A stretch of 64,000 nucleotides of DNA from a virus (taxonomy: Duplodnaviria; Caudoviricetes): positions 96,001 through 160,000 of IMG/VR virus record IMGVR_UViG_3300021399_000102, one strand, 5' to 3'. A model generated the notes under the pieces. That model worked only from the letters and a program-made list of their open reading frames with translations, made no database searches and was not told the DNA's origin. The position numbers and the translations under genes are program-made. Positions within the stretch are counted from its first letter, which is position 1; the number at the start of each line of letters is the position of its first letter. Shown piece by piece: positions 34,110 through 51,077 of this stretch.

Positions 34110-35089
34110 CAGAACTCCTTTTCAATCTCGTCAAGGTCTGCAAGCCACATGTCCTCAATATATGGAGATATGAATTCCATTTTCATCACGGCCATTTATC
34201 TCCACTGAATCAGATGCAAAAAATCCACGTTCCTCATGATTTTCATTTACAATGTCATTCAAGTCTATTGTTTCAACCTTTTCAATCGGTTTCAGCTTTG
34301 ACCTTAACTTTTCTGTCAATGCATAGACAATCAAATCATTTGATTTTCGTAAATCAGTAAGTTTAAGTCGTGTGGAGTTAAGACTATTTGTCTGTAGAAC
34401 AACAATGTGTTCATATTCCATCTCTTTCAATTTGGTCAGGATTTCAGAAAGATCGGCCTTTAAGATCTTGATTATCATTGGAACACCAAGCTCGGTTTTG
34501 TCTATCTGAAGGAGCATTTCTTTGCCATATGCATCTTTTACTGTCGGTGAGTCAACACTTGTTTCAGAATCACCTTCAAATGTCTTTGTTATTCTGAATC
34601 CATATTGTGTGAAGTCTTTTGCGCGTTTCATAAACCAATCTCCATGTGGGTCATAATTTTCCTTGAATAGATGTTCAGGGTGTTCTATACATTCTTGGAC
34701 ATGTATCATTTCATGGATAATAGATTCAATCCATTCATGTAGTGTAAGCATAGTTGAGGAATTCAACTCAATTCCGTCAACGTCAACAATTTCATCGCCA
34801 TAAATGGTTATATTTGTCTTCCCAATATGGTGTTTCTTTGGAGATTTCTCCATTGTAAATGTCAAATTTTTCGGCAGGGAATTTTCAAAGAACCTCTCGT
34901 TTAATTTCAGATATGCAACTTCAAGAAATTTCTCGGTAGGTGTATATTTCTTTTCGGATAAATCTCCATCAATGACCTTCATTACTATAGCATCATCTTC
35001 TGGGGTGTATTCTTCAGATACTATTCGTTTCCACTTCATGTTCAAAACTCCTTTTCAATCTCGTCGAGATCTGCAAGCCACATGTCCTC
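34109..35089. repeat. 48-bp direct repeat (34109-34156 and 35042-35089) of the topoisomerase 3' end flanking the SprT-like gene
   Basis: 45/48 identical; both copies encode EDMWLADLDEIEKEF-stop. Confidence 0.85.
34155..35045 (-). CDS. SprT-like zinc metalloprotease
   Basis: Y.KLN..FF...LP, IIHEMIH, PHGDWF; visibly AT-richer than its neighbours. Confidence 0.75.
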   Translation of the reverse strand: MNMKWKRIVSEEYTPEDDAIVMKVIDGDLSEKKYTPTEKFLEVAYLKLNERFFENSLPKNLTFTMEKSPKKHHIGKTNITIYGDEIVDVDGIELNSSTMLTLHEWIESIIHEMIHVQECIEHPEHLFKENYDPHGDWFMKRAKDFTQYGFRITKTFEGDSETSVDSPTVKDAYGKEMLLQIDKTELGVPMIIKILKADLSEILTKLKEMEYEHIVVLQTNSLNSTRLKLTDLRKSNDLIVYALTEKLRSKLKPIEKVETIDLNDIVNENHEERGFFASDSVEINGRDENGIHISIY

Positions 35090-36427
35090 TATGCTTTCCT
35101 TCTGGGTGGTCTTGATAAGTTCCTTAAGGTTCTTGATTTTCTCGGTCAATTCTGCCATCTTCTCCTTTGTGATTGAGGACATTGGCATGTTCAAGAGGTA
35201 GTTGTAGGAACCATCCTTCTGGATAATCTTGTCGGTCTTCTCCAACTGCTTGACGATATCTTCCTTCTTCTTGTTCTTGATGTGGATGGTTTCGTCAATA
35301 ACGCCCTTGCACCAGACATATTTGGACATGTCAAGCTGGATTTCCTCAAGGTATTTCTTCAAGAGGTAGTCCTTGCGCTTCTGATAGAAGTCAAGGCGAA
35401 TCTTGATGAACGCATCCAGAATCTCCTTGATGTTGTTGAACTCCTTGATTCGGTTGTTCTCGTCGATGCAATTCAACTGCTCGTTCAATGGCTTTGCCAG
35501 ATTGAAAGCCTTTACCAAAGAATCCATGTCCTTGTGGGAGTCGAAGAACACGCGCTTGACCTTGATTGTGAACTCAAACTTGTCAGCCTTTGGATCAGAC
35601 AAGTCGTCATAGTCCTCAATGTTTCCCTTCTCCACCAGACCATCCAAGAACTTGACATAGGAGGCGTATGTGGTGGTGATTGGGATTTCAGTGATGTGCA
35701 GGGTGTTGGAATTGACCTTCTCAATCACACCATAGTTCAGAATCTTCGTGGTCGTCTTTCCATCTGCGTCCTTCTCCTTGACGAGCTTTGTCTCGCCCAA
35801 GAAGCCCTTGAACCAAGGCAATGCGTTCTCAATGTGCGGAACCTTGTCGGTCTTGTTGAGGATGGCGCGAATGTACTTGAGAATCTCCTTTGGGTTTCTC
35901 GGATATATCTTCTGGGAATAGCCAGTTGAGATGCCATCAGAGCCATTGAGGAACAACGTCGGGAATACTGGCACGTAGTATGCTGGCTCAATTTCGTTGC
36001 CCTCGAACATCTGCCCCTTGCAAAGTGGTCTGTCCTTGTCGTAGAGCTTGCTCACCAAAGGAGAGATTGAGACGAAGGTGTATCTTGAAGCAGCAGGATC
36101 TGGCGAATACCTCGTGCCAAAGTTGCCGTGTCCGACAATCAATGGGTAGTTGTTTCCACCAACGAAAGATTGAGCCAACGTGCAAATTGCGCCATCCAAG
36201 TTGGTCTCGCCGTGGAGATACATGGACTTCAAGGAGACCGTAGCAGACATTTGGCTGGTCTTTGTCCTTGTGTTGGGGTTTCCAAAGTTCTCCAACATCG
36301 TCCAAATGATCTTGCGGTGCGCGTTCTTGAACCCATCAATGTAGGACGAGCATTTGCGGATGAGGTCGTAGGAGGCGTATGAAGGAACCTCCTCCTTGTA
36401 GAAATCTGTTATGTTCTTCTCGTTCAT
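35042..36427 (-). CDS. DNA topoisomerase II, GyrA/ParC-like subunit (T4 gp52-like)
   Basis: DGFKNAHRK, YLHGE, GNFG, AASRY catalytic Tyr, NGSDGISTG. Confidence 0.95.
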   Translation of the reverse strand: MNEKNITDFYKEEVPSYASYDLIRKCSSYIDGFKNAHRKIIWTMLENFGNPNTRTKTSQMSATVSLKSMYLHGETNLDGAICTLAQSFVGGNNYPLIVGHGNFGTRYSPDPAASRYTFVSISPLVSKLYDKDRPLCKGQMFEGNEIEPAYYVPVFPTLFLNGSDGISTGYSQKIYPRNPKEILKYIRAILNKTDKVPHIENALPWFKGFLGETKLVKEKDADGKTTTKILNYGVIEKVNSNTLHITEIPITTTYASYVKFLDGLVEKGNIEDYDDLSDPKADKFEFTIKVKRVFFDSHKDMDSLVKAFNLAKPLNEQLNCIDENNRIKEFNNIKEILDAFIKIRLDFYQKRKDYLLKKYLEEIQLDMSKYVWCKGVIDETIHIKNKKKEDIVKQLEKTDKIIQKDGSYNYLLNMPMSSITKEKMAELTEKIKNLKELIKTTQKESIEDMWLADLDEIEKEF

Positions 36428-36440
36428 TTTGCCAATCTCC

Positions 36441-38375
36441 TTATACCATGTCGATGTCGAAGGTGTAGTCCGAAATCAACTTCTTGCGCTCGTCAGATTT
36501 GTCTCCATTGAGCCAGTTGTCTATGTACGCCTGACCTTCCTCGTCCAACTTGAACGTCTGAATGAACTGCTCAACTCCACCATTCTCCTTGAAGAGCTTG
36601 ATGAACATTTCCTTCGGAAACGAACCCAATCCCTTGTAGTACTGAATCGCATACTTGGACATGTCGTTGCTTGACTCGAACTCCTTGAACTCAGAAAGGT
36701 CGAAGAACATCTTGTGAACCTTCGTCATTCCCTTGTCCTTGAACACGATTGCAAGAGGTGTCCTCAATCTACAAACCATTCCCTTGTCGAACATCCACGG
36801 CGCGAACTTCATGAACCAACCGAGGTAGATGGATGAAATGTGGATTCCATCGGCATCTGCATCGGACGTAATCACGAACTTCTTGAAGTTTAGGTTCTGC
36901 TCCTTTGGGTTGGTGATGTCCAACCCCAATATCGTGATGATGTCGCTGAACTCTTGGTTCTTCAACAACTGAGCCGAAGTCGCGTCATAGGCGTTTATGC
37001 CAACTCCACGGGACGCATAGTAGCCAAATCCTTCACGCCCTACTGCTGCAGACACGCCACCACGCGCAGACAATCCCTCGCACACCATCAAGTAGTTGTT
37101 GCTCCCGATTGGGCGAATGTACTTGTCCACAGAAATCTTCACCTTGGACTTGCCAGCTTGCTTTAGAGCAACCCTTTCCTTGACCTCCTCCTTGAGCTTG
37201 AATGTCTCAACGATTGGGTCGAGGATGTATTCGTTCTTGAGGATGTTCTTCGCCAACTTCTCCCAATCAACAGACTCGCCAAAGTATTTGGTTATCTCGG
37301 ATGGAAGGTTTGTCAATGTCTCCTTGGTTTGGGAGTCGAACTTGAGGTTGGGAAAGTCCCGAAGGAACACAACCATGGACAACTTGTTCTTGACGTCAGC
37401 AGGCTTGATGTTTTTGAACTTCTTGACCAGCTTCTCCCTCACTGGCGTGACGAGCTTATCAACGATGTAGTCGATGTGGTTTCCACCTCTGTTCAAAGCC
37501 AAGCCATCAACATAGGTGAAGAAGTTGAATTCGTCTGTCTCGTTTGGATAGACCCCAATGAACCCACGGTCGAACACCTGGAAGGTTATGTGCTCAGAGA
37601 AGAGATTGAGGAAGGTCTTGTCATTGACATTCACCTGCTTGCCGTTGAGCGAGAACTTGATTCCAGGGAAGGTGATGCCAAGGCAAATCAACCTCTGACG
37701 CATCAACTCCACATATACTGGGTCAATCTTCTCCATCCCAAACCTCTTGAAGTCTGGAACGAACTTGATTCTGACCCCACGCTCCTTGGATTCAGAAACT
37801 TCGGTTTCAACTGTCTCCAAGTTGTTCTTCGCAACCACCTTGCAAAGTTTCTTGCCATCGTCAGAGATGCCAACGAACTTCTTGGAGAAGATTGAGGTGC
37901 ATTTGGAGCCGAGACCATGGGAACCGACCGTAGTCTTGTCGTCACTGTCCTTGAAGTTGGAGCCAGAGAACAGGCGCGTCCATGCAATCTCGGGCAAATA
38001 GGTCTCGGAAATCTTCTTCTTCTCCTCGTCCGACATTCTGGAGTCAGTGATGTCCTTTATGTCCTTGCGAATCACTGGGATGCCAGGGCCGTTGTCCTCA
38101 ATGTACACCCACCCCTCGTCAATGACAACCTTCACCTTGCCCTTCGCCCCTTGATACTTCACGAGCGAGTCCACGGAGTTGTCGAGGATTTCGTCGATAA
38201 TCTTTCTGAAAGCAGGGATGTAGGAAACTTCCTTGTATTCCACGCCCTCCTTGTCAATCATGAACAGCTTTTGCGTCAGAGGCTGCATGCTTCCGAGCCA
38301 CATACCACTGCGCTTTAGGATTTGCTGAACCCCACTAATAGCCTCAAAGTCTTCTACTTGTTTGTTTGTCTTCAT
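36441..38375 (-). CDS. DNA topoisomerase II, GyrB-like subunit (T4 gp39+gp60-like)
   Basis: EILDNSVD, DNGPGIP, GSHGLGSK, EGLSA, DADADGIHI, YYKGLGS. Confidence 0.95.
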   Translation of the reverse strand: MKTNKQVEDFEAISGVQQILKRSGMWLGSMQPLTQKLFMIDKEGVEYKEVSYIPAFRKIIDEILDNSVDSLVKYQGAKGKVKVVIDEGWVYIEDNGPGIPVIRKDIKDITDSRMSDEEKKKISETYLPEIAWTRLFSGSNFKDSDDKTTVGSHGLGSKCTSIFSKKFVGISDDGKKLCKVVAKNNLETVETEVSESKERGVRIKFVPDFKRFGMEKIDPVYVELMRQRLICLGITFPGIKFSLNGKQVNVNDKTFLNLFSEHITFQVFDRGFIGVYPNETDEFNFFTYVDGLALNRGGNHIDYIVDKLVTPVREKLVKKFKNIKPADVKNKLSMVVFLRDFPNLKFDSQTKETLTNLPSEITKYFGESVDWEKLAKNILKNEYILDPIVETFKLKEEVKERVALKQAGKSKVKISVDKYIRPIGSNNYLMVCEGLSARGGVSAAVGREGFGYYASRGVGINAYDATSAQLLKNQEFSDIITILGLDITNPKEQNLNFKKFVITSDADADGIHISSIYLGWFMKFAPWMFDKGMVCRLRTPLAIVFKDKGMTKVHKMFFDLSEFKEFESSNDMSKYAIQYYKGLGSFPKEMFIKLFKENGGVEQFIQTFKLDEEGQAYIDNWLNGDKSDERKKLISDYTFDIDMV

Positions 38376-38432
38376 GTTGTATCACATTATACTTGATTTT
38401 GCGTATGTTGAATTATTTACGCGATTCAGATG

Positions 38433-38795
38433 TCAAAAGACACATTCAACAACCCTGTTCAACGTCCCATTCTCGTTCACACCCATCAAATCCTCAAGCT
38501 GATGTTGCCTTGTTCCAATCTCTTTCCCATCCAAAATGTCCTGCCCAACTCCCTCAATCTGAAGATACACCTCCCCATCAAGCCATGACTCATCGCAGTC
38601 AATGGTCAGAAGAGCCTCAATGACCTTGTTCACGAAGTTGTCCCAAGTGCCAAACTTCTCCTTCACCTCGTCCCACTGCGATTCATGCTCCCCAAACTGG
38701 TCTTGCAAAGCAAGCTCCACCTCTGGACGGATGTCCTTTGGCGTTGTGAATACAGTGTCCTCAGTTGTTTGGTTGAGTATTTCGTAGATCGTCAT
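38433..38795 (-). CDS. Acidic hypothetical protein
   Basis: ORF track. Confidence 0.55.
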   Translation of the reverse strand: MTIYEILNQTTEDTVFTTPKDIRPEVELALQDQFGEHESQWDEVKEKFGTWDNFVNKVIEALLTIDCDESWLDGEVYLQIEGVGQDILDGKEIGTRQHQLEDLMGVNENGTLNRVVECVF

Positions 38796-38828
38796 TTTCT
38801 GTTCCCTTCTTCGTATATTATACCACTT

Positions 38829-39200
38829 TTAGTTGTATGCGTTCAACATGTCTTCCATCAAGTCGGCGTCAATATTGGTCTGCCCATCGTCAGATTCCGT
38901 GATGAATATGCGTCCATCCTTGTCAACGAACATTACCTTGTGGGTAAGAGAGACATCGAACATGAACTCCAGAAATTCCTCCTTGTCCCTCTCGTTGTAG
39001 TCTGTGAATCCCACTATCTTGACATAATGTGGATGACCATTCTTGAACTTGATATCATATACCCTGAGGACAGACTTCTGCCAATTCCATTGGGACATTA
39101 TGCTCATCATGACTACTGTTGGCATTCCGTTGTTGATTTCCAAGTAATGGATATCTGACTGAGTGATGGTGTTCCAGGATATGTCATTCAGACTCAACAT
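38829..39200 (-). CDS. Paralog-array member 1
   Basis: MFDVSLTH...ESDDGQTNIDADLME. Confidence 0.75.
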   Translation of the reverse strand: MLSLNDISWNTITQSDIHYLEINNGMPTVVMMSIMSQWNWQKSVLRVYDIKFKNGHPHYVKIVGFTDYNERDKEEFLEFMFDVSLTHKVMFVDKDGRIFITESDDGQTNIDADLMEDMLNAYN

Positions 39201-39600
39201 TGTTCAATTTCCTTATTATCGCTTCCACCACATCTGCATCTATGTTGGTCGTGTTGTGTGCTGTCTTCGCCAACGCTATCTCGTTGAAGCCAATTATGTT
39301 CGTGTCAATCCATAGGATGGCGTATGAGAGGGATATGTCCATCAATTCAGAAATCAGTTTGTCCAAGTCGTTTGGCATGAAATACACAACCTCTTGCTTG
39401 CAGAATCTTCCATCCACATAACGTATGTTCTTCAGCCTCAGAATCTTGCCTTGCTTGCCAGTGGAGCGCAATCTGGATATTTGGTTCAATATCTCGTCCT
39501 TCTGGATGAAAGACGCATGTTGAACCCTATTGCATTCAGAATTTGTCAAGCTGAACATTATCGTTCCACCATTGTTTACGCTTGTCTCGTCAAATATCAT
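39184..39600 (-). CDS. Paralog-array member 2
   Basis: LMDISLSY...HNTTNIDADVVE. Confidence 0.75.
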   Translation of the reverse strand: MIFDETSVNNGGTIMFSLTNSECNRVQHASFIQKDEILNQISRLRSTGKQGKILRLKNIRYVDGRFCKQEVVYFMPNDLDKLISELMDISLSYAILWIDTNIIGFNEIALAKTAHNTTNIDADVVEAIIRKLNNVESE

Positions 39601-40039
39601 GTGGCTTCCTTGCTTCGTTGGCTTCTTCCACAACCTTAACCAACGCGGAAATAACCTCTTCGTCTATGTTGGTCGTGTTGTCTCCGGATTTCTCCAAGTA
39701 TATGCCAGTGAGGGTGTCAGTTGAGACATATCTTATGGTATATCCCTCTATGGACGCCTGAAAGAGGTATCCAACCAAGGCATCCAAGTCCTTGAAGTTG
39801 TACATATCAAAGGAAATCTGGTCGCGGAACACAGTGTCATTCCTTTTCCAAGGAACATCCTCATCCCAGAAAATCTTGTTTACCTTGATGTTGAACGAAT
39901 CGAAGTCCCATTTCTCTATCATGGTGGACAACACCATGTCCTTGGTAAACCACTTCTGGTCTTTTACCCAAGATAGACCGCCGTGGAGAAGCATAACCTT
40001 CTCCCCCTCGTACATTTCCCTGTCAAGATATTTGTGCAT
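39590..40039 (-). CDS. Paralog-array member 3
   Basis: LFQASIEG...SGDNTTNIDEEVIS. Confidence 0.7.
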   Translation of the reverse strand: MHKYLDREMYEGEKVMLLHGGLSWVKDQKWFTKDMVLSTMIEKWDFDSFNIKVNKIFWDEDVPWKRNDTVFRDQISFDMYNFKDLDALVGYLFQASIEGYTIRYVSTDTLTGIYLEKSGDNTTNIDEEVISALVKVVEEANEARKPHDI

Positions 40040-40401
40040 CAGTCTATCTTCCCCACTATGGCTTCTATGGTTTCGGCGCCTATTGAAGTTCCCTCGGTGG
40101 TCTCCTCCACATACAAGTTGAATGGTTCGGAAAGTCCAACGATTCTGTGGTAGTGCGCGATGTCGAACATGTCTCCAATGAACTCGTCCCTTTGGATTGT
40201 CAACGAATAGTCCCTTGAAATCAACTTCACCTTGCCAAGAGTATCCCTCACGACCTTGTATACCCGAATCCAAATGGCGTTTCCCCCAGAAAACAGCCAG
40301 CGAACGTCCTCGTCTGTAATTGGATGGCGTTTCGCCCGGTTGAGGACGATTAGATTCAGATTATCAGCTGGGTATGGTCTATCTGTTGGCTTGAACATCA
40401 T
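40039..40401 (-). CDS. Paralog-array member 4
   Basis: MFDIAHYHRIVG...ETTEGTSIGAETIE. Confidence 0.65.
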   Translation of the reverse strand: MMFKPTDRPYPADNLNLIVLNRAKRHPITDEDVRWLFSGGNAIWIRVYKVVRDTLGKVKLISRDYSLTIQRDEFIGDMFDIAHYHRIVGLSEPFNLYVEETTEGTSIGAETIEAIVGKID

Positions 40402-40931
40402 TTGCCACCTCCAAGTTTATAGAGGGAGTTTCGCATTATCTTCCTCTGCTCTTCCTCCACCAACCTTTCCTCTTCCTCAATGGAGGCAATTCTGATGATT
40501 TCTTGGATTCTGCCCATAACCTCGTCGTCTATGTTGAGCTCAGATGGGTCTGAAGTGCGGGCAAGCCACAACGAGCCAGAATACAACGCCACGATTCCAT
40601 GAAGGTCAGCGAGATTCGCCAATTCAGTGGATATGGTTTCCTCGCCATTTGGCAACACGAACATCTTGCTGCGCTTGTGTGTTGGCTTTCCTGCAAAGTC
40701 GCCTAAGAGAACATGGATTGTGACAAGTCCCCTCATTGGCTTCCACTCGTATTTCAACCTGTCCATTATCCATTTCTTCGACAGGAACTCGCAACCACCA
40801 AGAAGCTCCCTCTCATGGTCGTCCAACTGAAAGACATATGGATCGGTGCAATCCTTCCAAGAGATTTCAATGGCAGGAGCAATCAACAATCTCCTATTGG
40901 AGATTTGCACGTTTGGTTGCGCTACATTCAT
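40398..40931 (-). CDS. Paralog-array member 5
   Basis: ELANLADLHGI...DPSELNIDDEVM. Confidence 0.7.
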   Translation of the reverse strand: MNVAQPNVQISNRRLLIAPAIEISWKDCTDPYVFQLDDHERELLGGCEFLSKKWIMDRLKYEWKPMRGLVTIHVLLGDFAGKPTHKRSKMFVLPNGEETISTELANLADLHGIVALYSGSLWLARTSDPSELNIDDEVMGRIQEIIRIASIEEEERLVEEEQRKIMRNSLYKLGGGK

Positions 40932-41401
40932 TTCCCAGATCCTTCCAATCCAAGCTTATTGGCTATTCTGTCAACAGTTGTTGCGTCTATGTTCAATTCC
41001 ATTGGATCCCTGACCTTCCGAACCCATATCTGGCTTCCACTCATCCTGATGATGCCATGAAGGTCGGACAAGTTGGCAAGTTCAACTATGAAGTCGTCCT
41101 TCTTGTCAGGAATGGGAAACTCCTGCTTCGTCTTCCACGTCGGCTCCATGTTCTCGTATTCCCACACAACAATGCCAACCATTCCCCTCTTGTTGGGTCT
41201 CCATCCCTTGAGCAATTTCTTGAGTCTGTTCTTGGAGAGGAAGCAACAACCACGTAGCCTACGTGCTTCGTCGTCCCAAACCCTGTCCCTAACCTTTCCT
41301 CCACCCATAACGTCAATTCCATTTGGGTCCATGAGTGTTGGAAAGACCCTTCTCACCATTGGTATCAACACATTCGGCGTGTAATAGTTAGTCATAATCA
41401 T
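40928..41401 (-). CDS. Paralog-array member 6
   Basis: ELANLSDLHGI...DPMELNIDATTV. Confidence 0.7.
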   Translation of the reverse strand: MIMTNYYTPNVLIPMVRRVFPTLMDPNGIDVMGGGKVRDRVWDDEARRLRGCCFLSKNRLKKLLKGWRPNKRGMVGIVVWEYENMEPTWKTKQEFPIPDKKDDFIVELANLSDLHGIIRMSGSQIWVRKVRDPMELNIDATTVDRIANKLGLEGSGK

Positions 41402-41802
41402 CTCCGAAACGCATTGGTGAACTCTTCCAGAACATCAGCGTCGATGTTGGTTCCCCCATTCTCCGATGCTCCAACATAGACCTTGAACACATAATCGTCT
41501 TGCTTGAGCAAGATTATGGTGTTGCCCAAGGAGAGATTCGCCAAATCTTGGATTAGCGCGTCTCCATCCTTTGGAAGGACATAGATATTTTGCTGCTTTG
41601 TCCACTCTAAATAGTGCTTGTCCATGTTCCTTACGTGCCAAAGGACAAGTCCGCAATTGTTGAGATTCCATTTCTTGAGGATATTGACAATGAGCTGACT
41701 CTCGTTTACTGGACCCCAGCCCCAGTTGCGTATGTTTCCAACCTCCTGAAAGGTGAGTGGAAATTCATTGTCTTCAAGGTCATGGCATGGGCTTTGTTTC
41801 AT
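41398..41802 (-). CDS. Paralog-array member 7
   Basis: DLANLSLGNTI...SENGGTNIDADVLE. Confidence 0.75.
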   Translation of the reverse strand: MKQSPCHDLEDNEFPLTFQEVGNIRNWGWGPVNESQLIVNILKKWNLNNCGLVLWHVRNMDKHYLEWTKQQNIYVLPKDGDALIQDLANLSLGNTIILLKQDDYVFKVYVGASENGGTNIDADVLEEFTNAFRR

Positions 41803-41816
41803 TGTGCGAACCCCCG

Positions 41817-42212
41817 TTAAATTGTGTTTCTTGTCTTCGTTGCGACTATTGCTTCCATCACTTCGGCGTCGATGTTGCTTGTATGGTCTTCTGATTCAAC
41901 AAGTGCGACTTCAACTCCCATTCCCGGTATGTTGATTCCCACTATGGTATGCGTCAAGGACAACTCCGAAAGGTCAGAAACAATCCTGTCCATCTTGTTG
42001 GGCATGATATACAACTGTTCTTGGCAGAACCAATCAATGCCATTCTGAAACAAGTAGAATACCTTCACTACGCTACTGCACCTTTGCTTCTTGGCATTCA
42101 ACTTCTTGAGCAATTCATCCCTCTTCATGGGCAAATGCGCACTTCCAATCCAACGCCACATTGGATTGTCACGTTCAACCAAATAATATAGTTCATTGTC
42201 CATGAAGACCAT
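41817..42212 (-). CDS. Paralog-array member 8
   Basis: DLSELSLTHTI...ESEDHTSNIDAEVME. Confidence 0.75.
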   Translation of the reverse strand: MVFMDNELYYLVERDNPMWRWIGSAHLPMKRDELLKKLNAKKQRCSSVVKVFYLFQNGIDWFCQEQLYIMPNKMDRIVSDLSELSLTHTIVGINIPGMGVEVALVESEDHTSNIDAEVMEAIVATKTRNTI

Positions 42213-42213
42213 T

Positions 42214-42720
42214 TTACTTGTTCCACTCCTCCCAAGCGATATAGTCGTCCTCGGACTTGGCGTTGTCCTCGAACGTTCCCCACTTCAAGACGCAACCGGC
42301 GAGACCAGAGGCAATCCAAATGGGATAGCACCAATACTGATATGCGTCCCTAATGGACTCTGCGGAGAAATCAATGCCCATTCTCTTATCTTCTGGCTTG
42401 ATGTCTTTGTTGTTGTCAAGTTCCACGATATGACGGGCGTTGAAGATTGCCACTTCCCTGGGAGTAGGGGGTCGGATTTGATGCTCAGAGAACTGCTCAT
42501 CCCAAATGTTGAGAAGGTAGTTAAGATAGTTGTTGTCGTCAATGAAATGCCCGTTGAGCCAACGAAGATACTGATAGGCGTCCGGATTGTTTAGCGGAAG
42601 GCGAAGATTGTGCAAGTCCTTGTCCTTCATATAGTGCAGAAACTCCATGTAGTCAACGCTCTTGATGGCGTTGAACTCCTTGTCATCCTTCGGACGCCAT
42701 TTGATTTCAGGTAATTCCAT
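42214..42720 (-). CDS. Hypothetical protein (not an array member)
   Basis: GAGG SD; first gene after the promoter at 42754. Confidence 0.6.
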   Translation of the reverse strand: MELPEIKWRPKDDKEFNAIKSVDYMEFLHYMKDKDLHNLRLPLNNPDAYQYLRWLNGHFIDDNNYLNYLLNIWDEQFSEHQIRPPTPREVAIFNARHIVELDNNKDIKPEDKRMGIDFSAESIRDAYQYWCYPIWIASGLAGCVLKWGTFEDNAKSEDDYIAWEEWNK

Positions 42721-42753
42721 ATCAACCTCGCTTTCCTTGGCTTCAACACATAT

Positions 42754-42782
42754 ATTATCTCATATTCCGAACAGAATGTCAA
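42754..42782 (-). promoter_or_regulatory. Early promoter
   Basis: TTGACA-N17-GATAAT, TG extension. Confidence 0.75.
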
Positions 42783-42859
42783 TAGACCTTTGGTCTATTC
42801 CTGCTATTCTTCAATACCCCCTTGGCATTCAATCAAACTTGTTTGATTTCAATATCTCC

Positions 42860-43285
42860 TTATGCGGATAGTTCAAGCCCACACGCTTCCCAATGCGCCA
42901 ATGTTTGGTACTTTCTCTTGTCCTTCAACTCCATCAACCGATTGTAGGTGGAATCGAGGATGTCAAAGGTTATGTTGGTCTGCCCATCATTTGAGGGAAC
43001 CAGATGCCATTCAAGGAAGAAGTTCCCGTTGATTTTGGCTATTGAGTGTGTAAGAGACCACTTCATCATTTCTGCATAGAACAAGTCCTTGTCTTCATTT
43101 TTGCGAAGGTCAAGCTTTATTTCCTGCCGTTTGCATCCATTGTCGCAAATGTTTATTACTATGTAGCAATTCTCAACCTTGAGTTTCTGTATTTCTGAGG
43201 ACAACTGCCCCTCAGATGGAATCTCTGATGGAAGGTCTACCTTGAGGTAACTTCCCTTGTATTTGTTGTAGAATGGCTTTCTCAT
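42860..43285 (-). CDS. Paralog-array member 9
   Basis: MMKWSLTHSI...SNDGQTNITFDILD. Confidence 0.75.
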   Translation of the reverse strand: MRKPFYNKYKGSYLKVDLPSEIPSEGQLSSEIQKLKVENCYIVINICDNGCKRQEIKLDLRKNEDKDLFYAEMMKWSLTHSIAKINGNFFLEWHLVPSNDGQTNITFDILDSTYNRLMELKDKRKYQTLAHWEACGLELSA

Positions 43286-43665
43286 ATCCTAACATTGAAC
43301 TTCTTGAGAATTGATTCAATGAGCTTTCCATCCACGTTCGTGTTTCCGATGGATTCCCGTATGACTATAAGGAGATTTCTCTTTCCACATGGGTCGTTGT
43401 CCTTGGTTATTCCAATGATTTCGTGGGTCAAGGAAAGGTCGAACATGAACTTGACGAACGATTCAACCTCCTCCGGTATTCCAAAGAATTTACGATAGCA
43501 GGTTTCCTTATCAACCGGATTGAAGATGTGTATGAACAAAGATTCCAATTTTATTGCATCCAGAAGCGGAAATAAGGCGTCAGTGGTCAATGATGGCTTG
43601 TTCAACCACGTTTCGCGCTCTTTCAATGTTATTGGATTGAAATACATTTCTCGATCTATGATCAT
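43282..43665 (-). CDS. Paralog-array member 10
   Basis: MFDLSLTHEI...ESIGNTNVDGKLIE. Confidence 0.75.
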   Translation of the reverse strand: MIIDREMYFNPITLKERETWLNKPSLTTDALFPLLDAIKLESLFIHIFNPVDKETCYRKFFGIPEEVESFVKFMFDLSLTHEIIGITKDNDPCGKRNLLIVIRESIGNTNVDGKLIESILKKFNVRI

Positions 43666-44054
43666 TTTTCATACCTTTGCGACAGTGCATCAATCAAAGT
43701 CGGCGTTATGTTGGTGCATCCATTCTTGGATTCAACCAAGGTGATTACGTCAGCATAGATGTTCTCCCCCAAGTTGTCTGAGTAGATGTTCCTTCCTATG
43801 CAGTAGTCTATGATGGTGTTGTTCAAGGACATGTCGAACAAATGTCCTATAAGCTGTTCTGCTCCACTTGGAACAGTGAACGTCCATGCAGTTCCCCATC
43901 CATCGTTGGTCAATCTCCTGACGATTACGGTCTTGATGAACTGTTTGGTGTTGTGCTTGATGTAGTTCACCACCCAAGTTGAATCATAGGGTTGCCAAGT
44001 TCTGACCATCTTGTTCTGATAGAATTGTTGTCTGAATCTCTTTCCCTCAATCAC
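43662..44054 (-). CDS. Paralog-array member 11
   Basis: LFDMSLNNTI...ESKNGCTNITPTLID. Confidence 0.75.
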   Translation of the reverse strand: MIEGKRFRQQFYQNKMVRTWQPYDSTWVVNYIKHNTKQFIKTVIVRRLTNDGWGTAWTFTVPSGAEQLIGHLFDMSLNNTIIDYCIGRNIYSDNLGENIYADVITLVESKNGCTNITPTLIDALSQRYEK

Positions 44055-44530
44055 CCTTCCACCACCATTCCATTCAATTCCTCGTTCAATGTCTTGATTG
44101 GCCGCTTGACAACCTCAAAGATAAGCTCCACGATTTCGTCAGTGATGTTCGTTGTGCCATCCTCAGATTCCACCACATAGATGGTTGCTGATCTTGGATT
44201 CACCCCAAGAATCCTATGGTTCAAGGACAAGTCGAACATGTCAGAGACAATCCTGTTTATGTTCATCGGCAACTCGTATGCCCTGGTGTTGAACAGGTAT
44301 TTTGGGGGAACCCAGTTCATATGGGATGTTTCCGGATCCAGTTGCTTCACCTTCGACACGCAAACAACCCCACAGAACCACTCTTGGATTGGCTTGATGT
44401 CCAATATGTCATTCTTGAGTTGGGCTTCGTCATAATCCACGAAGAACTTTGCCACAGACGAGAATTCCCCGGAATCTCCTGGCTTCCAATAGCCCCGGGT
44501 ATCCATCATCATCTTTGTTGAACTTGACAT
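44051..44530 (-). CDS. Paralog-array member 12
   Basis: MFDLSLNHRI...ESEDGTTNITDEIVE. Confidence 0.75.
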   Translation of the reverse strand: MSSSTKMMMDTRGYWKPGDSGEFSSVAKFFVDYDEAQLKNDILDIKPIQEWFCGVVCVSKVKQLDPETSHMNWVPPKYLFNTRAYELPMNINRIVSDMFDLSLNHRILGVNPRSATIYVVESEDGTTNITDEIVELIFEVVKRPIKTLNEELNGMVVEG

Positions 44531-44943
44531 CTTGGCTTCCTTTTGTTCAATTGCTTGGCAATCTTCTTATGAATGTCCATCATCGCCTCCATCACTTCAT
44601 TGTCTATGTTGGTGCTTCCATCCTTGGACTCCTCCACCACCATCTCCAGGTATTGGGCATCCACCGCAATCAACTTGTGGGTCAGGGAAAGCGAGAACAA
44701 GTCAGAGCAAAGCTCGTCCAATCCATGACCTGACGTCATGTCGTAGCTTCCCAACATGCGAACATTGAGATATTTTGATTGTCGAACCTCGTAGATGTTG
44801 ATGGAGAACATGAAGTCCTCAACCACTTTCCTTCTCTTCGTGTCGTTGTATGACTTCTTCCAAGTGAGTTTCCTTCCCTCCTTCACAAGGTCGCTCATTC
44901 CCTTGCTGGCGTCACTCCAATCGTTGTTGTCTTTGATTAGCAT
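44509..44943 (-). CDS. Paralog-array member 13
   Basis: LFSLSLTHKL...ESKDGSTNIDNEVME. Confidence 0.75.
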   Translation of the reverse strand: MLIKDNNDWSDASKGMSDLVKEGRKLTWKKSYNDTKRRKVVEDFMFSINIYEVRQSKYLNVRMLGSYDMTSGHGLDELCSDLFSLSLTHKLIAVDAQYLEMVVEESKDGSTNIDNEVMEAMMDIHKKIAKQLNKRKPRCQVQQR

Positions 44944-44946
44944 TTC

Positions 44947-45939
44947 TCACAACCTCCAATCTGGGCTCAACTTCTCCAGCTCGTTCCAATCAAATGGAAG
45001 GTTGAAGAACTCAAGCAATTCTGTGTTCTCCTTCATTCCATTGAAGATTTTTGGTGCATGGATGTATATGTAGATGAACAAGTCCATGACATCGAATTGA
45101 GTCTCAATCATATTCATCTCAAACACAATTTCCTCGAAAGTCCGAAGATCCTTGAAGAGCCTTTCACCAAACACAGATGGAATGCGCTCGAACTGATCAG
45201 ACCACAGTTTCTCCAATGCTAGTGTGTTCGTGGAATTCAATTGAAGGACATTGACAACCCAATTGAATGTGTTAGTTTCACCAGAGACGAGAAGTTGCTT
45301 GAGCAATGTGTTCACGGCGTGGGCAAGGTAGGGAACCGAGCTTCTTGCTGACCATCCAGTTACGCCAAAGATGTCTCCAATGGATGACAATATGACATAT
45401 TGCGTCCTGGTGGAGAAGCCAAGGAAATTGCCAGCCATCAGCATTGACCTGGCGAGATAGGACTCCCGAAGGAACATCTTGACATCCCCCTTGTCTGCCG
45501 AGATTGCCTCCACGAGCTTGTTGAAGTCAACGTCTCCTGACGCTACTTTGTCGTCTTCAATGAACCGACCCTTGTACCCATCGCTTCTGAACCTGATGAG
45601 GTTGGCGTTTCCGCGAAAATTGTCCCTCAGTTCCTTCATGATCTCTGGATAGATGTCCTCTTCCACCAGGAAATGTGCGAGGGATTCTTCTGCGAAGCAC
45701 ATGTCCAATGGATGAAGAGATTCCACATGTCTTGCGAGAAAGTCATTGACCCTGTATGGATGGGCAGCAAGGTCATATAGGTCGTACACGAACGCACTGT
45801 GCTTGTAGATGTCCTCAATCTGACTTTCGTGGCTCTTAAGGAACGCCACAACCACCTTGAAGTCGGTTCCATCCATAAACATCTCGTCCAGAACCCTTGA
45901 CAAGGACACTTCTGTCGATATGGAATGATCGTAGTTCAT
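44947..45939 (-). CDS. Hypothetical protein heading the array operon
   Basis: AAGGAG SD; 330-aa ORF. Confidence 0.7.
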   Translation of the reverse strand: MNYDHSISTEVSLSRVLDEMFMDGTDFKVVVAFLKSHESQIEDIYKHSAFVYDLYDLAAHPYRVNDFLARHVESLHPLDMCFAEESLAHFLVEEDIYPEIMKELRDNFRGNANLIRFRSDGYKGRFIEDDKVASGDVDFNKLVEAISADKGDVKMFLRESYLARSMLMAGNFLGFSTRTQYVILSSIGDIFGVTGWSARSSVPYLAHAVNTLLKQLLVSGETNTFNWVVNVLQLNSTNTLALEKLWSDQFERIPSVFGERLFKDLRTFEEIVFEMNMIETQFDVMDLFIYIYIHAPKIFNGMKENTELLEFFNLPFDWNELEKLSPDWRL

Positions 45940-45972
45940 GTGCCTATTTCTCCTTTGCTCAACAACACCAAT

Positions 45973-46002
45973 ATTATATCATAAACTGGCTTCTGATGTC
46001 AA
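45973..46002 (-). promoter_or_regulatory. Early promoter
   Basis: TTGACA-N18-TATAAT, shared upstream motif. Confidence 0.7.
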
Positions 46003-46108
46003 TACCCCTTTGTAGGTATTCATGCCAACTTGCTTGGCAATCAATACCCCTTTGGAACTTCACGAAATGGCTTGGAAGTGGTATAATTGGGAATAAAGGA
46101 GAATAGGA

Positions 46109-47158
46109 ATGATTGACTTTGAGGAAGATATATTGGAGAACTCTGGAACTGGGGAATTCGCGCCAACAAGGGATGAGGGACTTTGGGTCACTAAATACCG
46201 ACCAAGGACATTGGAGCATTTTTGCCTTGACCCAAAGTTGAAGGCTCTATTTCAGAAGCAAATTGACGCAAATGACGTTCAGAACGTGTGTTTGGTTGGG
46301 GGTCCAGGAATTGGAAAGACAACTCTGGCCCTGATTCTGGCCAATTCAAGCAAGGATTCTGACATATTGTTCGTGAGTTGCGCATCTGGCGAGGGCAAGG
46401 TGGAGTCAATCCAGTCAAAGATTATCCCATTCTGCCAAAGCGCATCGAGTGGTCGCAAGTTCGTGATATTGGACGAATTGGATTCAGCGTCAGCAACGCA
46501 AGCCAACTCCTTCCAAAAGGCTTTGAGGAACGTAGTGGAGGCATTCCCAGATTGCAGGTTCATTGCCACTGCAAACTATCAAACCAACATCATCGGGCCA
46601 CTTTGCCCTTCAAGGCTTCCTCCCAAGATGTTGAGTTTCTCGGTGTCAGAGATGATTTCCAATCTTCTCTATATCCTTGGCGAAGAGAACATTGAGATTG
46701 TAAGCGAGGCGACAAAGACAAAGCAGTTCCTAGGTAGCCTCATCAAGTCCTACTACCCAGACATGCGTTCGGTTGTGGGTCAATTGCAAGCAGCTTGCGT
46801 TGGTGGGACATTGGATGTGGAGAACATCACCATCAACAACAAGGAGGCAATCAAGAACGCATTGGCTCAATTCCTCTCGCTCGTAAAAGGAGCGGGAACG
46901 CCACTTGAAATGCGCAAGGCGTACAACAACGAGATTCTGGCGTTTGGAAACAATGGCAATCTTTCCAAGCTTTACTCACCACTTGGTCTCGCCGAGGAAA
47001 TCTTGAACTACTTGATTGAAAATTACAACATAGATCCAGAGGACTTGATGGTACTCGTGGAGTACATCTACAAGATTGAGCATTCTGTGGATGGCGAGAC
47101 CCAGTTCTTTGGGTTCTTGCTCAAGGTAAAGACAATCGACTTCAACAAAGGAGCATGA
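46109..47158 (+). CDS. Clamp-loader AAA+ subunit (T4 gp44/RFC-like)
   Basis: LWVTKYRP, GGPGIGKTT, ILDELD, FIATANY, YPDMR. Confidence 0.9.
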   Translation: MIDFEEDILENSGTGEFAPTRDEGLWVTKYRPRTLEHFCLDPKLKALFQKQIDANDVQNVCLVGGPGIGKTTLALILANSSKDSDILFVSCASGEGKVESIQSKIIPFCQSASSGRKFVILDELDSASATQANSFQKALRNVVEAFPDCRFIATANYQTNIIGPLCPSRLPPKMLSFSVSEMISNLLYILGEENIEIVSEATKTKQFLGSLIKSYYPDMRSVVGQLQAACVGGTLDVENITINNKEAIKNALAQFLSLVKGAGTPLEMRKAYNNEILAFGNNGNLSKLYSPLGLAEEILNYLIENYNIDPEDLMVLVEYIYKIEHSVDGETQFFGFLLKVKTIDFNKGA

Positions 47159-48901: not shown

Positions 48902-49651
48902 TCAAATCTTCTACCCATATCTCCTCAGGAAGTCCTCCCTTGCAGCCTTTTGCATCTCCATCATCTTCTGCTGTTGCTCGTCTTGCGCCACCGGTGACTT
49001 CATTTGCGTTTCCATCCCGTTCTTGTCAAGCAACACGAAATGCGTATATGCGCAAGTGAAGGAATGTTGGATTTCATCTGCTTCAGAATAGGACAATTGA
49101 AGGTCAGAGAATGCCTTTATCCAACAGTTCTTGAACCTGAATCCAACTATGGGCTTCTTGTAGGGCGAGAGCAATGTAACATCTATGTCGCAGGCGTTTA
49201 TCAAACCATTTGCCTCTACGTTTCCAGTATCAAGTGCATTCACACCCTTGTTTACAGGAGCGTTGTTCATGCACCAATTGTAAAGCGCACGGTAGTCTGT
49301 CCAATCCGCACTCACGAAGTAGTTGAATGTGATTTCCTTGCTGCCAGGAGACATTGTATATGTCGGCCTTTCAATCTCAATGGAACGATACATAACCTTG
49401 TCAGTACCCATTTCAATTGAAGGAATCGTGAATGTTGATAGACGGAGATTGACATTTTGAAAATCTGGCCCGAGGCACAAATAAATCGGAATATCTGCCA
49501 CCCATTTGTTTTTGGCAGCAAAAGCATTTTGATTAGAAATCCCGTCATTTGCATTGACATTGATTCCAGGATACACCAACTACTATTTCCTGTTCAAGTT
49601 CCTAGTTTGGTTTGGATGTTGAAAGTGATTGACATTATTGGGTATAGACAT
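48902..49651 (-). CDS. Tail completion/tube terminator protein (T4 gp3-like), 249 aa with 3 in-frame TAG
   Basis: FTIPSI...ITFNYFVSADWTDYRALYNW...F.NCWI..FSDLQLSY pattern; ATG 49651 reached through TAG-TAG. Confidence 0.65.
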
Positions 49652-51077
49652 GCTTGAATACCTCCTTTAGGTTATTGATGTCTTTTCCACGAAGTATAGT
49701 GACATTGTTGGCAAGCATGCATTGATGCTTCGCTTCAAACTTTGCACATTCTCTGGCATATCGTTCATCGGACCATTTTTTGTTTCGATATGGATTGAAC
49801 ATGACTTCATGTCCCGATTCATCCACCTTGAAGAATTGATCTCCCTTGACTTCATATATCTTTCCATTTATAAGAAAGTCGGGTTGATATATCCATTTCC
49901 TTTCACAACATTCATATGTGAAAGATATATTTGGTTGATATTCACACGCTATATTGATGTTCTTGCAATAGTCATATACCTTAATTTCCCATTTGGAATC
50001 AAACCACATCCCATCATGCCAATATCTTTTCCTTCTTCGCACATGACAGACATGAGTTTGTTGGTATAATATGCCTCCGTGGTTTCGTCTATTAGTTTCT
50101 TGGCATTTATTCACCAATTCTTTCTTTTCTTGTTCGGACTTTTGCTCCCATTTCAATTTCCTGGCTTCAATGGCTTCTGGTCTGTTTCCTGGATCGGATG
50201 TTCCATATGTTTGCTGGAAAGCACATCGTATCTTTTCATTAGTCTCTTTTGATGCAAACCCTATTCCATTGTATCTGTCCATCTGCGTTTCCATTGCCCT
50301 GTTAAGTATATCTTTTGATTGCATTGGATTCTTGACACCAATCTTCTCCAAGCAAGTTCTTTCCCTGGATTCGACTGTTTGTCTAATCTCTTCCTCGGTT
50401 TTCTTGCTCCAAGTTTCATTTAACATGTCCTTGAATTCTGGTCGTTGAGTTGGATAATCCACATTCCATTTTCTTCTGCAGGTTGCTTTTCGCTTGGCCT
50501 TCCCTTCTTTTGTCTGGCATGCCAATTTTCCGCCATGATTCATCCTATCGTGCTTTTGTGTCAGTTCTATATTGTTGTAATTTTCGTTTCCATACTTCTC
50601 TTTCAAGGTAGCCTTGGACTTTCTTGTTCGTTCGTCAATTTCCTCTTTAGTCTTGTTCCTCCAAATCTGACGAAGATGTTCTTTAGCCTCTGGCAATTGA
50701 CCCCAACAATTCACGCCATGCGCTTTCTTGAAATTGTCTCGCATTGTCTTTTTTGTCTCTTCTGACTTCATTGCGCAAGAGTTGCAACAATAATCGCAAT
50801 AACCCCTCGGGACGGAATCTATGTTCTTCCATTCAAGCGGTTTATTGCATTCTGGATTCTTGCATCTTGGAAAGTCTGTCAAGTCGTGGACAATCCAATA
50901 CAGCTTTGTTCTGAAGGTATAGAATGGGTCAGAAAGATGTGTAGAGGTCTTCCACTCCACGAAGTCCTTGAGGTACGATTTCTTCTTGAAGATCATGCCA
51001 TAGGACTTATACTTGGAGCATATGTCCTTCACTTCTGTGGTATATTTCTCCACCTCTTCTGGCGTATATTCTTCCAT
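49635..51077 (-). mobile_element. Putative free-standing homing endonuclease (KYG/HGV-type repeats plus PD-(D/E)xK domain)
   Basis: CxNPEC...YCCNSC; repeated T..EKYG.ENY-like units; FDSKWE...YQPDF...YEVKG. Confidence 0.7.

Follow-up and report, generated by a model that had tools for sequence, protein, structure and literature searches.

What is a run of 13 small, closely packed genes, and what might a phage use it for? The question is raised by the 64,000-nucleotide window analysed here (bases 96001-160000 of the 201,557-bp IMG/VR contig IMGVR_UViG_3300021399_000102, or G000), in which topoisomerase II genes on one side and a clamp loader gene on the other bracket a minus-strand array at 38829-44943. 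The predicted source is a distant, giant, uncultured T4-like phage, of whose genome the contig represents about 48% (CheckV completeness). All 13 open reading frames (ORFs) listed in the initial annotation are present, and we find that, on the evidence of their sequences, they are together with a 14th gene of the contig diverged paralogs of one undescribed small-protein family. Members are numbered m01 to m13 by ascending coordinate (Table 1). Two non-members, h330 and x168, lead the two blocks of the array, h330 being followed by m13-m09 (block 1) and x168 by m08-m01 (block 2).

The paralogy of the 13 genes, claimed in the initial annotation from a shared motif, was confirmed by profile alignment. 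Pairwise phmmer comparison joined all of them in one network, and a hidden Markov model (HMM) made from any twelve recovered the omitted member, with E values from 1.2e-8 to 2.8e-19 (Z=441). With the full profile, the 13 members scored E<=1e-26 and the next of the 441 window ORFs of at least 50 aa scored E 0.26; neither h330 nor x168 matched the family HMM. Identity between members on the contig does not exceed 44% (over 64 aa), and pairwise identities to m08 are 18-31%. The sub-clade that had been proposed for m05 and m06 holds (41% identity over 106 aa, phmmer E 1e-18, tree support of 98%) and has orthologues in three other genomes. The count of 13 is right for the window, but a whole-contig profile search found a 14th member, m14, about 1 kb past the window end (genome 161005-161433, minus strand, 142 aa). 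This gene is solitary and stands apart from the main array; it carries the motif ...SLAY...ESKDGTTNIT... and is 79% identical to its orthologue in G003, one of the complete relatives described below. As the contig covers only about half of the genome, the phage probably has more dispersed arrays.

No description of the family was found, in keeping with the initial annotation, which had not recognised it: all libraries searched gave no match to any characterised family. The members had no match above noise in Pfam, PHROGs, NCBIfam or PADLOC, 140 family sequences had none in Pfam, and the best hit of the family profile among PDB sequences had an E value of 0.22. In 50,697 GenBank phage records, neither the array (blastn) nor m12 (tblastn, E<=1) had a match, a profile search of T4 and KVP40 (E<=1) did not find the family, and m08 alone had no match in IMG/VR.

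Relatives were found by a HMMER scan of 1.84 billion representative proteins, with clusters defined at 50% identity, which retrieved 252 clusters at E<=1e-3, of which 73 also pass E<=1e-10. Among the 150 clusters listed, a single one falls outside a size of 48-193 aa, and many span the whole profile. The window paralogs have one-to-one counterparts among these database matches, and the named relatives are all called 'hypothetical protein'. The outlier in size, P0125 (985 aa, six weak stretches), was rejected as a false positive, an unrelated repeat protein. Longer fused forms were not found, which by the account of the search tool is weak evidence; a 278-aa ORF of G002 with the family domain has no Pfam match, and its start may be over-extended. 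Three relatives in IMG/VR (G001-G003) were reached with a degenerate DNA pattern for TNIDADVI; they measure 433,895, 418,068 and 414,060 bp, all with terminal repeats and a completeness rating of 100%. A broad profile counts 20, 26 and 26 copies in them. These form one main array and several dispersed arrays per genome, the latter holding 15-20 of the 20-26 copies, well away from x168 and h330. Within the reach of the searches, the family is confined to a lineage of T4-like phages of ~415-435 kb that is known only from metagenomes.

How old is this expansion? A quick IQ-TREE phylogeny of 86 members from four genomes, in which many deep forks are unresolved, groups the members by orthologue and not by genome, the 14 rows of G000 needing 14 label changes compared with a mean of 13.1 after shuffling. 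The duplications therefore pre-date these phages, and the expansion is old, as had been supposed. Best reciprocal family orthologues are 37-38% identical in G001 and range from 32 to 79% in G003, while reciprocal orthologues of m07, m09 and m10 are absent from all of G001-G003. The two flanks give conflicting relationships to these genomes: identities to G001/G002/G003 are 92/92/70% for topoisomerase and 83/66/89% for the clamp loader, from which it follows that recombination has occurred across or within the array region.

Evolutionary rates were estimated from two close relatives with DNA, L039 and L040 (ERZ920286 scaffold_45, 414,386 bp). The ratio of nonsynonymous to synonymous substitution rates (dN/dS) of the members is 0.13-0.56 against L039 and 0.20-0.63 against L040, such that every copy is kept by purifying selection. 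The corresponding values are 0.07 and 0.08 for the clamp loader and 0.06 for topoisomerase (L040 only, the gene not being on L039), and the members are 2-8 times less constrained than these flanking replication genes. Constraint is also uneven along the proteins, as dN against L039 is higher in the N-terminal than in the C-terminal half in 12 of the 13 genes, and pooled dN/dS is 0.29 in the N module compared with 0.19 in the C module.

Copies continue to be lost and exchanged. The array has 13 copies here, 14 in L039 and 9 in L040, in phages whose core genes are 90-98% identical. L039 has an extra 162-aa member between the counterparts of m08 and m07, and L040 is without m10, m09, m04 and m03. 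One gene of L040 aligns with m05 over nt 1-481 (465/481 identical) and with the m03 3' end over nt 465-513 (45/48), and thus records a deletion that joined the two paralogs within a shared stretch of ~17 nt. Furthermore, dS jumps from 0.17 to more than 1.2 between adjacent genes, and m04 and m08, at 54% and 69.5% identity to their L039 counterparts, appear as individually replaced genes; the dS jumps and the low value for m04 indicate replacement at the level of cassettes. The initial annotation had spoken of a gene accordion. This is apt insofar as copy number varies through deletion and cassette replacement, but the recent amplification that the term implies does not fit a contig whose closest pair is only ~44% identical.

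The same annotation had placed each block behind a strong early promoter. The layout is as described, since the array's only two sizeable intergenic gaps hold the sigma-70 sites P1 and P2, but both promoters precede the non-member lead genes. Sites of this quality (11/12 or better) number only 23 in the 201.6-kb contig, compared with about 3 expected by a uniform-composition estimate. Near-consensus promoters of this early type occur at both positions in L039, L040, G002 and G003, so that this part of the claim is upheld; what such sites say about timing is weighed further below. The promoter upstream of h330 in G003 is perfect and has the same GGGGTA extension as P1, and that in G002 matches 12/12 with different upstream bases; overall, the extension recurs at both sites of G003 and one of G002. 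In relatives, 12/12 promoters also lie close upstream of several dispersed arrays. The late-type sequence GTAAATA does not occur inside the array. Its lone occurrence in 38300-46200 is at 38414, in the ~57-bp interval before the start of the topoisomerase gene (38375), where it could be a separate topoisomerase promoter if co-oriented.

Each of the two promoters is preceded by a small hairpin and by additional GGGGTATTGA boxes (one or two) that repeat the -35 region, an arrangement kept in L039, L040 and G003. The P1 hairpin has a predicted RNA folding energy of -16.7 kcal/mol (z -3.3), and none of 200 shuffles was as good. The arrangement of boxes and hairpins resembles the stem-loop/sigma-70 promoter (PeSL) cassettes of T4-type phages; alternatively, it could be the binding site of a regulator. 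Downstream of the lead genes, most starts overlap the upstream stop codon as ATGA or GTGA, and the two blocks are tightly packed, probably translationally coupled operons. The start codons of m02 (ATG 39600), m03 (ATG 40039) and m11 (GTG 44054) were set by inspection. TAG codons neither occur within nor end the 13 members, x168, h330 or the next downstream gene; the array boundaries are thus independent of the code used, and translation is possible with the standard code, ahead of any recoding of TAG.

These features invite comparison with the hyperplastic regions of T4-type phages, in which variable ancillary or adaptive genes are bounded by PeSL cassettes (Comeau, Arbiol & Krisch 2014, PMC4122927; Arbiol et al. 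2010, PMC2839356). As in those regions, the array is a variable block between conserved core modules (the flanks are 66-92% identical in G001-G003), and its gene content differs between close relatives by indels and exchanges. Its small genes stand behind near-perfect sigma-70 promoters, and the hairpin before each, at the block heads only, may be the counterpart of a PeSL. Its position is also that of small early genes of T4, such as goF, motB, srd and modA, in a co-oriented stretch upstream of gene 39. However, hyperplastic regions are made up for the most part of ORFans without relation to one another, many with a PeSL of their own, whereas the array consists of one paralogous family in two long coupled operons, and the deletion traced in L040 used homology between paralogs rather than a PeSL. 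The plastic-region architecture of T4-type phages of 160-250 kb would thus persist in a lineage twice that size, with one diversified family in place of the ORFan mix.

A second comparison is with the jumbo phages G and 121Q, which carry tandem gene arrays (Hua et al. 2017, PMC5646251). They share with the present array kilobases of head-to-tail copies of one small protein without assigned function. Their arrays, however, are recent tandem duplications with very similar copies, whereas the copies here are at most ~44% identical, form no genome-specific clades, go back to duplications before the split of the four phages and occur in several arrays of each genome. There is no relation between the protein families, as judged by the lack of a PHROG match and of tblastn matches in the 50,697 phage records. 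Large phages give much extra DNA to families of this kind, almost none of which has a known role.

What kind of protein does the array encode? AlphaFold2, applied to m08 with the 140-sequence alignment, returned a confident model (mean predicted local distance difference test score, pLDDT, 87.2; predicted TM score, pTM, 0.80). By this model, m08 is a single alpha/beta domain composed of beta1 (residues 10-12), alpha1 (31-40), a beta2-beta3 hairpin (48-57 and 60-69), alpha2 (74-87), a beta4-beta5 hairpin (88-94 and 99-106), a loop and alpha3 (116-123), and the remaining members align to m08 across the profile. The proposal of a variable N-terminal module attached to a constant docking motif is not sustained, as the model is one folded domain that includes the N-terminus. 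The shared motif maps to the model in two parts: L..LSLTH.I covers the end of alpha2 together with beta4, and ES.DG.TNID..V runs from the end of beta5 through the loop into the first part of alpha3. In the second part, T112-x-x-D115 may be read as a helix-capping box and D-G as a turn. Only S85 (91%), N113 (96%) and I114 (95%) are conserved at 90% or more, which argues against a shared catalytic site. H88 (68%), D109 (67%) and E106 (56%) are less conserved, and with candidate catalytic residues so poorly kept, the enzyme reading was set aside. Before about residue 43, there are no conserved columns save Met1 and scattered hydrophobic positions.

The model has no convincing structural neighbour. 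Foldseek gave no match for m08 at E<=1e-3 in PDB and BFVD, and the best Z in a VIA-align search of 48,161 chains was 3.6, all scores being at chance level according to the notes of the tool. Nudix proteins recur among these weak neighbours, foremost NUDT7 (5t3p_A; Z 3.6, root-mean-square deviation (rmsd) 4.7, 86 residues aligned; a weak Foldseek E of 0.06 and TM score of 0.21); Pfam NUDIX matched none of the 140 members, the Nudix box itself not having been searched as a pattern. Beta-grasp domains appear near Z 3, again a chance-level score (e.g., 1ymh_E, Z 3.2, rmsd 3.4, 56 aligned). Residues ~45-110 of m08 share the beta-beta-alpha-beta-beta order of protein L/G B1 and ubiquitin-like folds, but the family has an added beta1/alpha1 as well as the conserved loop and alpha3, and it has no sequence relation to them. 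The SUKH/polyimmunity-type tandem immunity proteins also form arrays of diverged paralogs. For these, no SMI1_KNR4/SUKH Pfam match was found in the 140 members, and no SUKH structure is among the fold-search rows listed for m08, an absence that does not exclude a shared fold. In the T4 internal proteins (IPI-III type), paralogs share a conserved N-terminal capsid-targeting sequence; here, by contrast, conservation is lowest in the N-terminal regions. A DNA-mimic reading was rejected as well, since the acidity of the family is only mild (median isoelectric point 5.2; crude proteome of the contig, 6.8) and the 14 copies on the contig include three basic ones.

The lead genes are a different matter from the members that follow them. 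h330 is a single-copy gene that heads the main array in the complete relatives, with 47/39/54% identity in G001/G002/G003, 66 unnamed homologues and a dN/dS of 0.19 against L039 and 0.21 against L040. x168 is found always immediately upstream of members (64/72/52% identity in G001/G002/G003), has 33 invariant columns in 37 sequences, and is yet more constrained (dN/dS 0.14 and 0.15). Both keep the same positions in L039 and L040, and identical x168 and h330 proteins are encoded on a 422-kb contig, which fits the ~48% completeness of ours. x168 is predicted to be all-helical (AlphaFold2 pLDDT 91.3), and fold searches with it (Foldseek against PDB and BFVD, VIA-align) gave nothing above chance (best Z 4.2). 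As a strongly constrained protein without family or fold match, x168 merits study in its own right. x168 and m08 are separated by a single base, which suggests that their translation is coupled. When the complex of the two was predicted, both being supplied as alignments, it scored 0.01 against a mark of 0.32, an outcome that speaks neither for nor against binding.

The reading that we favour, though with somewhat less than even confidence, is that the family consists of diversified early binding proteins, non-enzymatic and built on a shared scaffold, that are aimed at host targets. The unmodified host RNA polymerase would transcribe the array right after infection, and the products would be cytoplasmic binders. 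The conserved C-terminal half would chiefly be the core of the fold, whereas the faster-evolving N-terminal face (beta1, alpha1 and beta2-beta3) would give each paralog its own host target, to be blocked or redirected for takeover or counter-defence. The array would then correspond to the ancillary gene palette of T4-type hyperplastic regions, but drawn from a single family. A binder is favoured over an enzyme because there is no invariant catalytic set. The multigene families of eukaryotic DNA viruses, namely the African swine fever virus multigene families MGF360/505 and the poxvirus ankyrin and BTB-kelch proteins, likewise comprise diverged paralogs on one scaffold with strain-variable copy number and an assumed role in dealing with host factors; they have no sequence or fold relation to the present family, whose host is prokaryotic. 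Should the copies turn out to neutralise different host factors or defences, new inhibitors could readily be drawn from them. The family is in any case unusually tractable, with 252 clusters, a confident model that lacks a structural neighbour, clear orthogroups, two conserved companions and natural variants that lack copies.

Several observations weigh against host-directed binders. Gene-wide dN/dS is well below 1 and gives no direct sign of an arms race. The orthologues of m01, m04 and m14 are 71-79% identical to those of G003, which could equally fit a housekeeping task within the phage programme. The polar and acidic loop with E106, S107, D109, T112, N113 and D115 could be a site for a ligand, a metal or a partner rather than a part of the fold core. 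A match to the sigma-70 consensus is no evidence of timing, and the fold has been predicted for one member only, m08.

It is improbable, but worth keeping in view, that the members instead serve the phage's own programme, as accessory factors of replication, transcription or assembly or as subunits of hetero-oligomers. The array is embedded among replication genes, its orthogroups are ancient and retained across genomes, and purifying selection acts throughout. Yet members are naturally dispensable, given that L040 is without four of them and L039 has one more while the core genes are 90-98% identical. Nor do m07, m09 and m10 have reciprocal orthologues in the three complete genomes, and cultured T4-type phages are without the family (50,697 records by tblastn of m12; T4 and KVP40 by profile).

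About as improbable is a hub-and-adaptor arrangement, in which the C-terminal loop and helix dock on one partner (x168, h330 or a host hub) and the variable half recruits targets. It draws on the two lead genes, which are single-copy, far better conserved than the members and at the block heads in four genomes as well as in L039 and L040, with x168 only one base away from m08; the conserved polar residues also gather in one loop and helix. The occurrence of h330 as a conserved, single-copy, syntenic companion would be compatible with docking of this kind, which the initial annotation had hinted at. It is harder to reconcile with the large share of copies that are dispersed far from both lead genes, with the simple structural reading of T-x-x-D and D-G as capping box and turn, and with the m08 model, which shows one domain and not two modules. 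A more specific form, which we rate lower still, is that of a substrate-receptor library: the 20-26 paralogs would dock via the near-invariant S...TNID loop-helix on one hub (x168, h330 or a host machine), each delivering a different host protein. If true, this would be a bacterial-virus counterpart of the F-box or BTB adaptor families, on a fold without a solved relative.

We consider it unlikely, somewhat more so than the own-programme and hub-and-adaptor readings, that the proteins bind small molecules or metals (e.g., as sponges for host immune signals) or are weak enzymes that use a pocket of S, H, E, D and N residues. S85, H88, E106, D109, N113 and D115 are near in sequence around beta4, beta5 and the loop, and the weak but recurrent Nudix-like neighbours with NUDT7 at their head would fit such a pocket. 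However, H88, D109 and E106 are missing in at least a third of the members, including m02, m03, m05, m06, m07 and m11, no Pfam match was obtained for the 140 members, the Z of 3.6 does not reach what the tool itself states for resemblance by chance, and at least 20 diverged paralogs are hard to reconcile with a single ligand. Finally, the notion that these are unrelated small ORFs with just a short motif in common, a chance or annotation artefact to which the low identities to m08 might lend colour, is refuted by leave-one-out E values down to 3e-19, by 252 database clusters with full-length profile matches and by a dN/dS well below 1 in every copy, with the confident fold from the joint alignment speaking against it as well, and has practically no probability left.

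Table 1. Members of the array, lead genes, promoters, upstream elements and flanking genes (window coordinates; paired dN/dS values are against L039 and L040, in this order; LOO E, E value of the leave-one-out search)
Feature	Coordinates	Strand	Description
gp52-like topoisomerase II subunit	35042-36427		recognisable by similarity
topoisomerase II large subunit	36441-38375	-	~33% identity to T4-type gp39
m01, end of block 2	38829..39200	-	123 aa; LOO E 4.2e-15; G003 orthologue 71%
m02	39184..39600	-	138 aa; LOO E 6.6e-16; dN/dS 0.13 and 0.26
m03	39590..40039	-	149 aa; LOO E 7.6e-14; G003 orthologue 59%; L040 retains 3' tail alone
m04	40039..40401	-	120 aa; LOO E 6e-9; G003 orthologue 72%; 54% in L039; absent from L040
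m05, ELANLxDLHG sub-clade	40398..40931	-	177 aa; LOO E 9e-12; L040 counterpart is the m05/m03 chimera
m06, ELANLxDLHG sub-clade	40928..41401	-	157 aa; LOO E 1.1e-13
m07	41398..41802	-	134 aa; LOO E 2.8e-19; dN/dS 0.23 and 0.20
m08, the modelled member	41817..42212	-	131 aa; LOO E 5e-19
x168, block 2 lead, non-member	42214..42720	-	single copy, strongly conserved, predicted all-helical
promoter P2	42754..42782 (42782->42754)	-	TTGACA-17-GATAAT with TG, 11/12
small hairpin and GGGGTATTGA-like boxes	42783-42859	-	precedes P2; z -2.0
m09, end of block 1	42860..43285	-	141 aa; LOO E 1.2e-8; not in L040; dN/dS 0.56 against L039
m10	43282..43665	-	127 aa; LOO E 7e-13; no reciprocal orthologue in G001-G003; in L039, not in L040
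m11	43662..44054	-	130 aa; GTG start overlapping m12 stop; LOO E 1e-10; G003 orthologue 47%; dN/dS 0.28 and 0.33
m12	44051..44530	-	159 aa; LOO E 3e-18; dN/dS 0.24 and 0.49
m13	44509..44943	-	144 aa; LOO E 2e-16; G003 orthologue 57%; dN/dS 0.30 and 0.63
h330, block 1 lead, non-member, single copy	44947..45939	-	330 aa; no Pfam, PHROG, NCBIfam or PADLOC match
promoter P1	45973..46002 (46002->45973)	-	TTGACA-18-TATAAT, extended -10 TG, 12/12
hairpin and duplicated GGGGTATTGA box	46003..46050	-	directly upstream of P1; sequence kept in L039
clamp loader	46109-47158	+	recognisable by similarity

Around the array, the surroundings also differ between relatives. In the window, the interval between the clamp loader and h330 is a 170-bp promoter region only, whereas in L040 a 188-aa gene with a match to Pfam DruA (PF14236, Druantia-associated) is inserted there (L040:9311-9877, minus strand). 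At the opposite edge, an acidic 120-aa gene lies downstream of m01 (38433-38795, minus strand) with its own promoter of 10/12+TG (38846->38817); in the two close relatives, DUF7487 (PF24308) genes replace this unrelated gene (L039:8556-9491 and L040:15586-16206). Beyond the clamp loader and still close to the replication genes, the window encodes a tail-tube-like protein (48911-49579, minus strand; phrog_45, E 5e-14) and a homing-endonuclease-like protein of 480 aa (49635-51077, minus strand; phrog_3339, E 2.5e-10).

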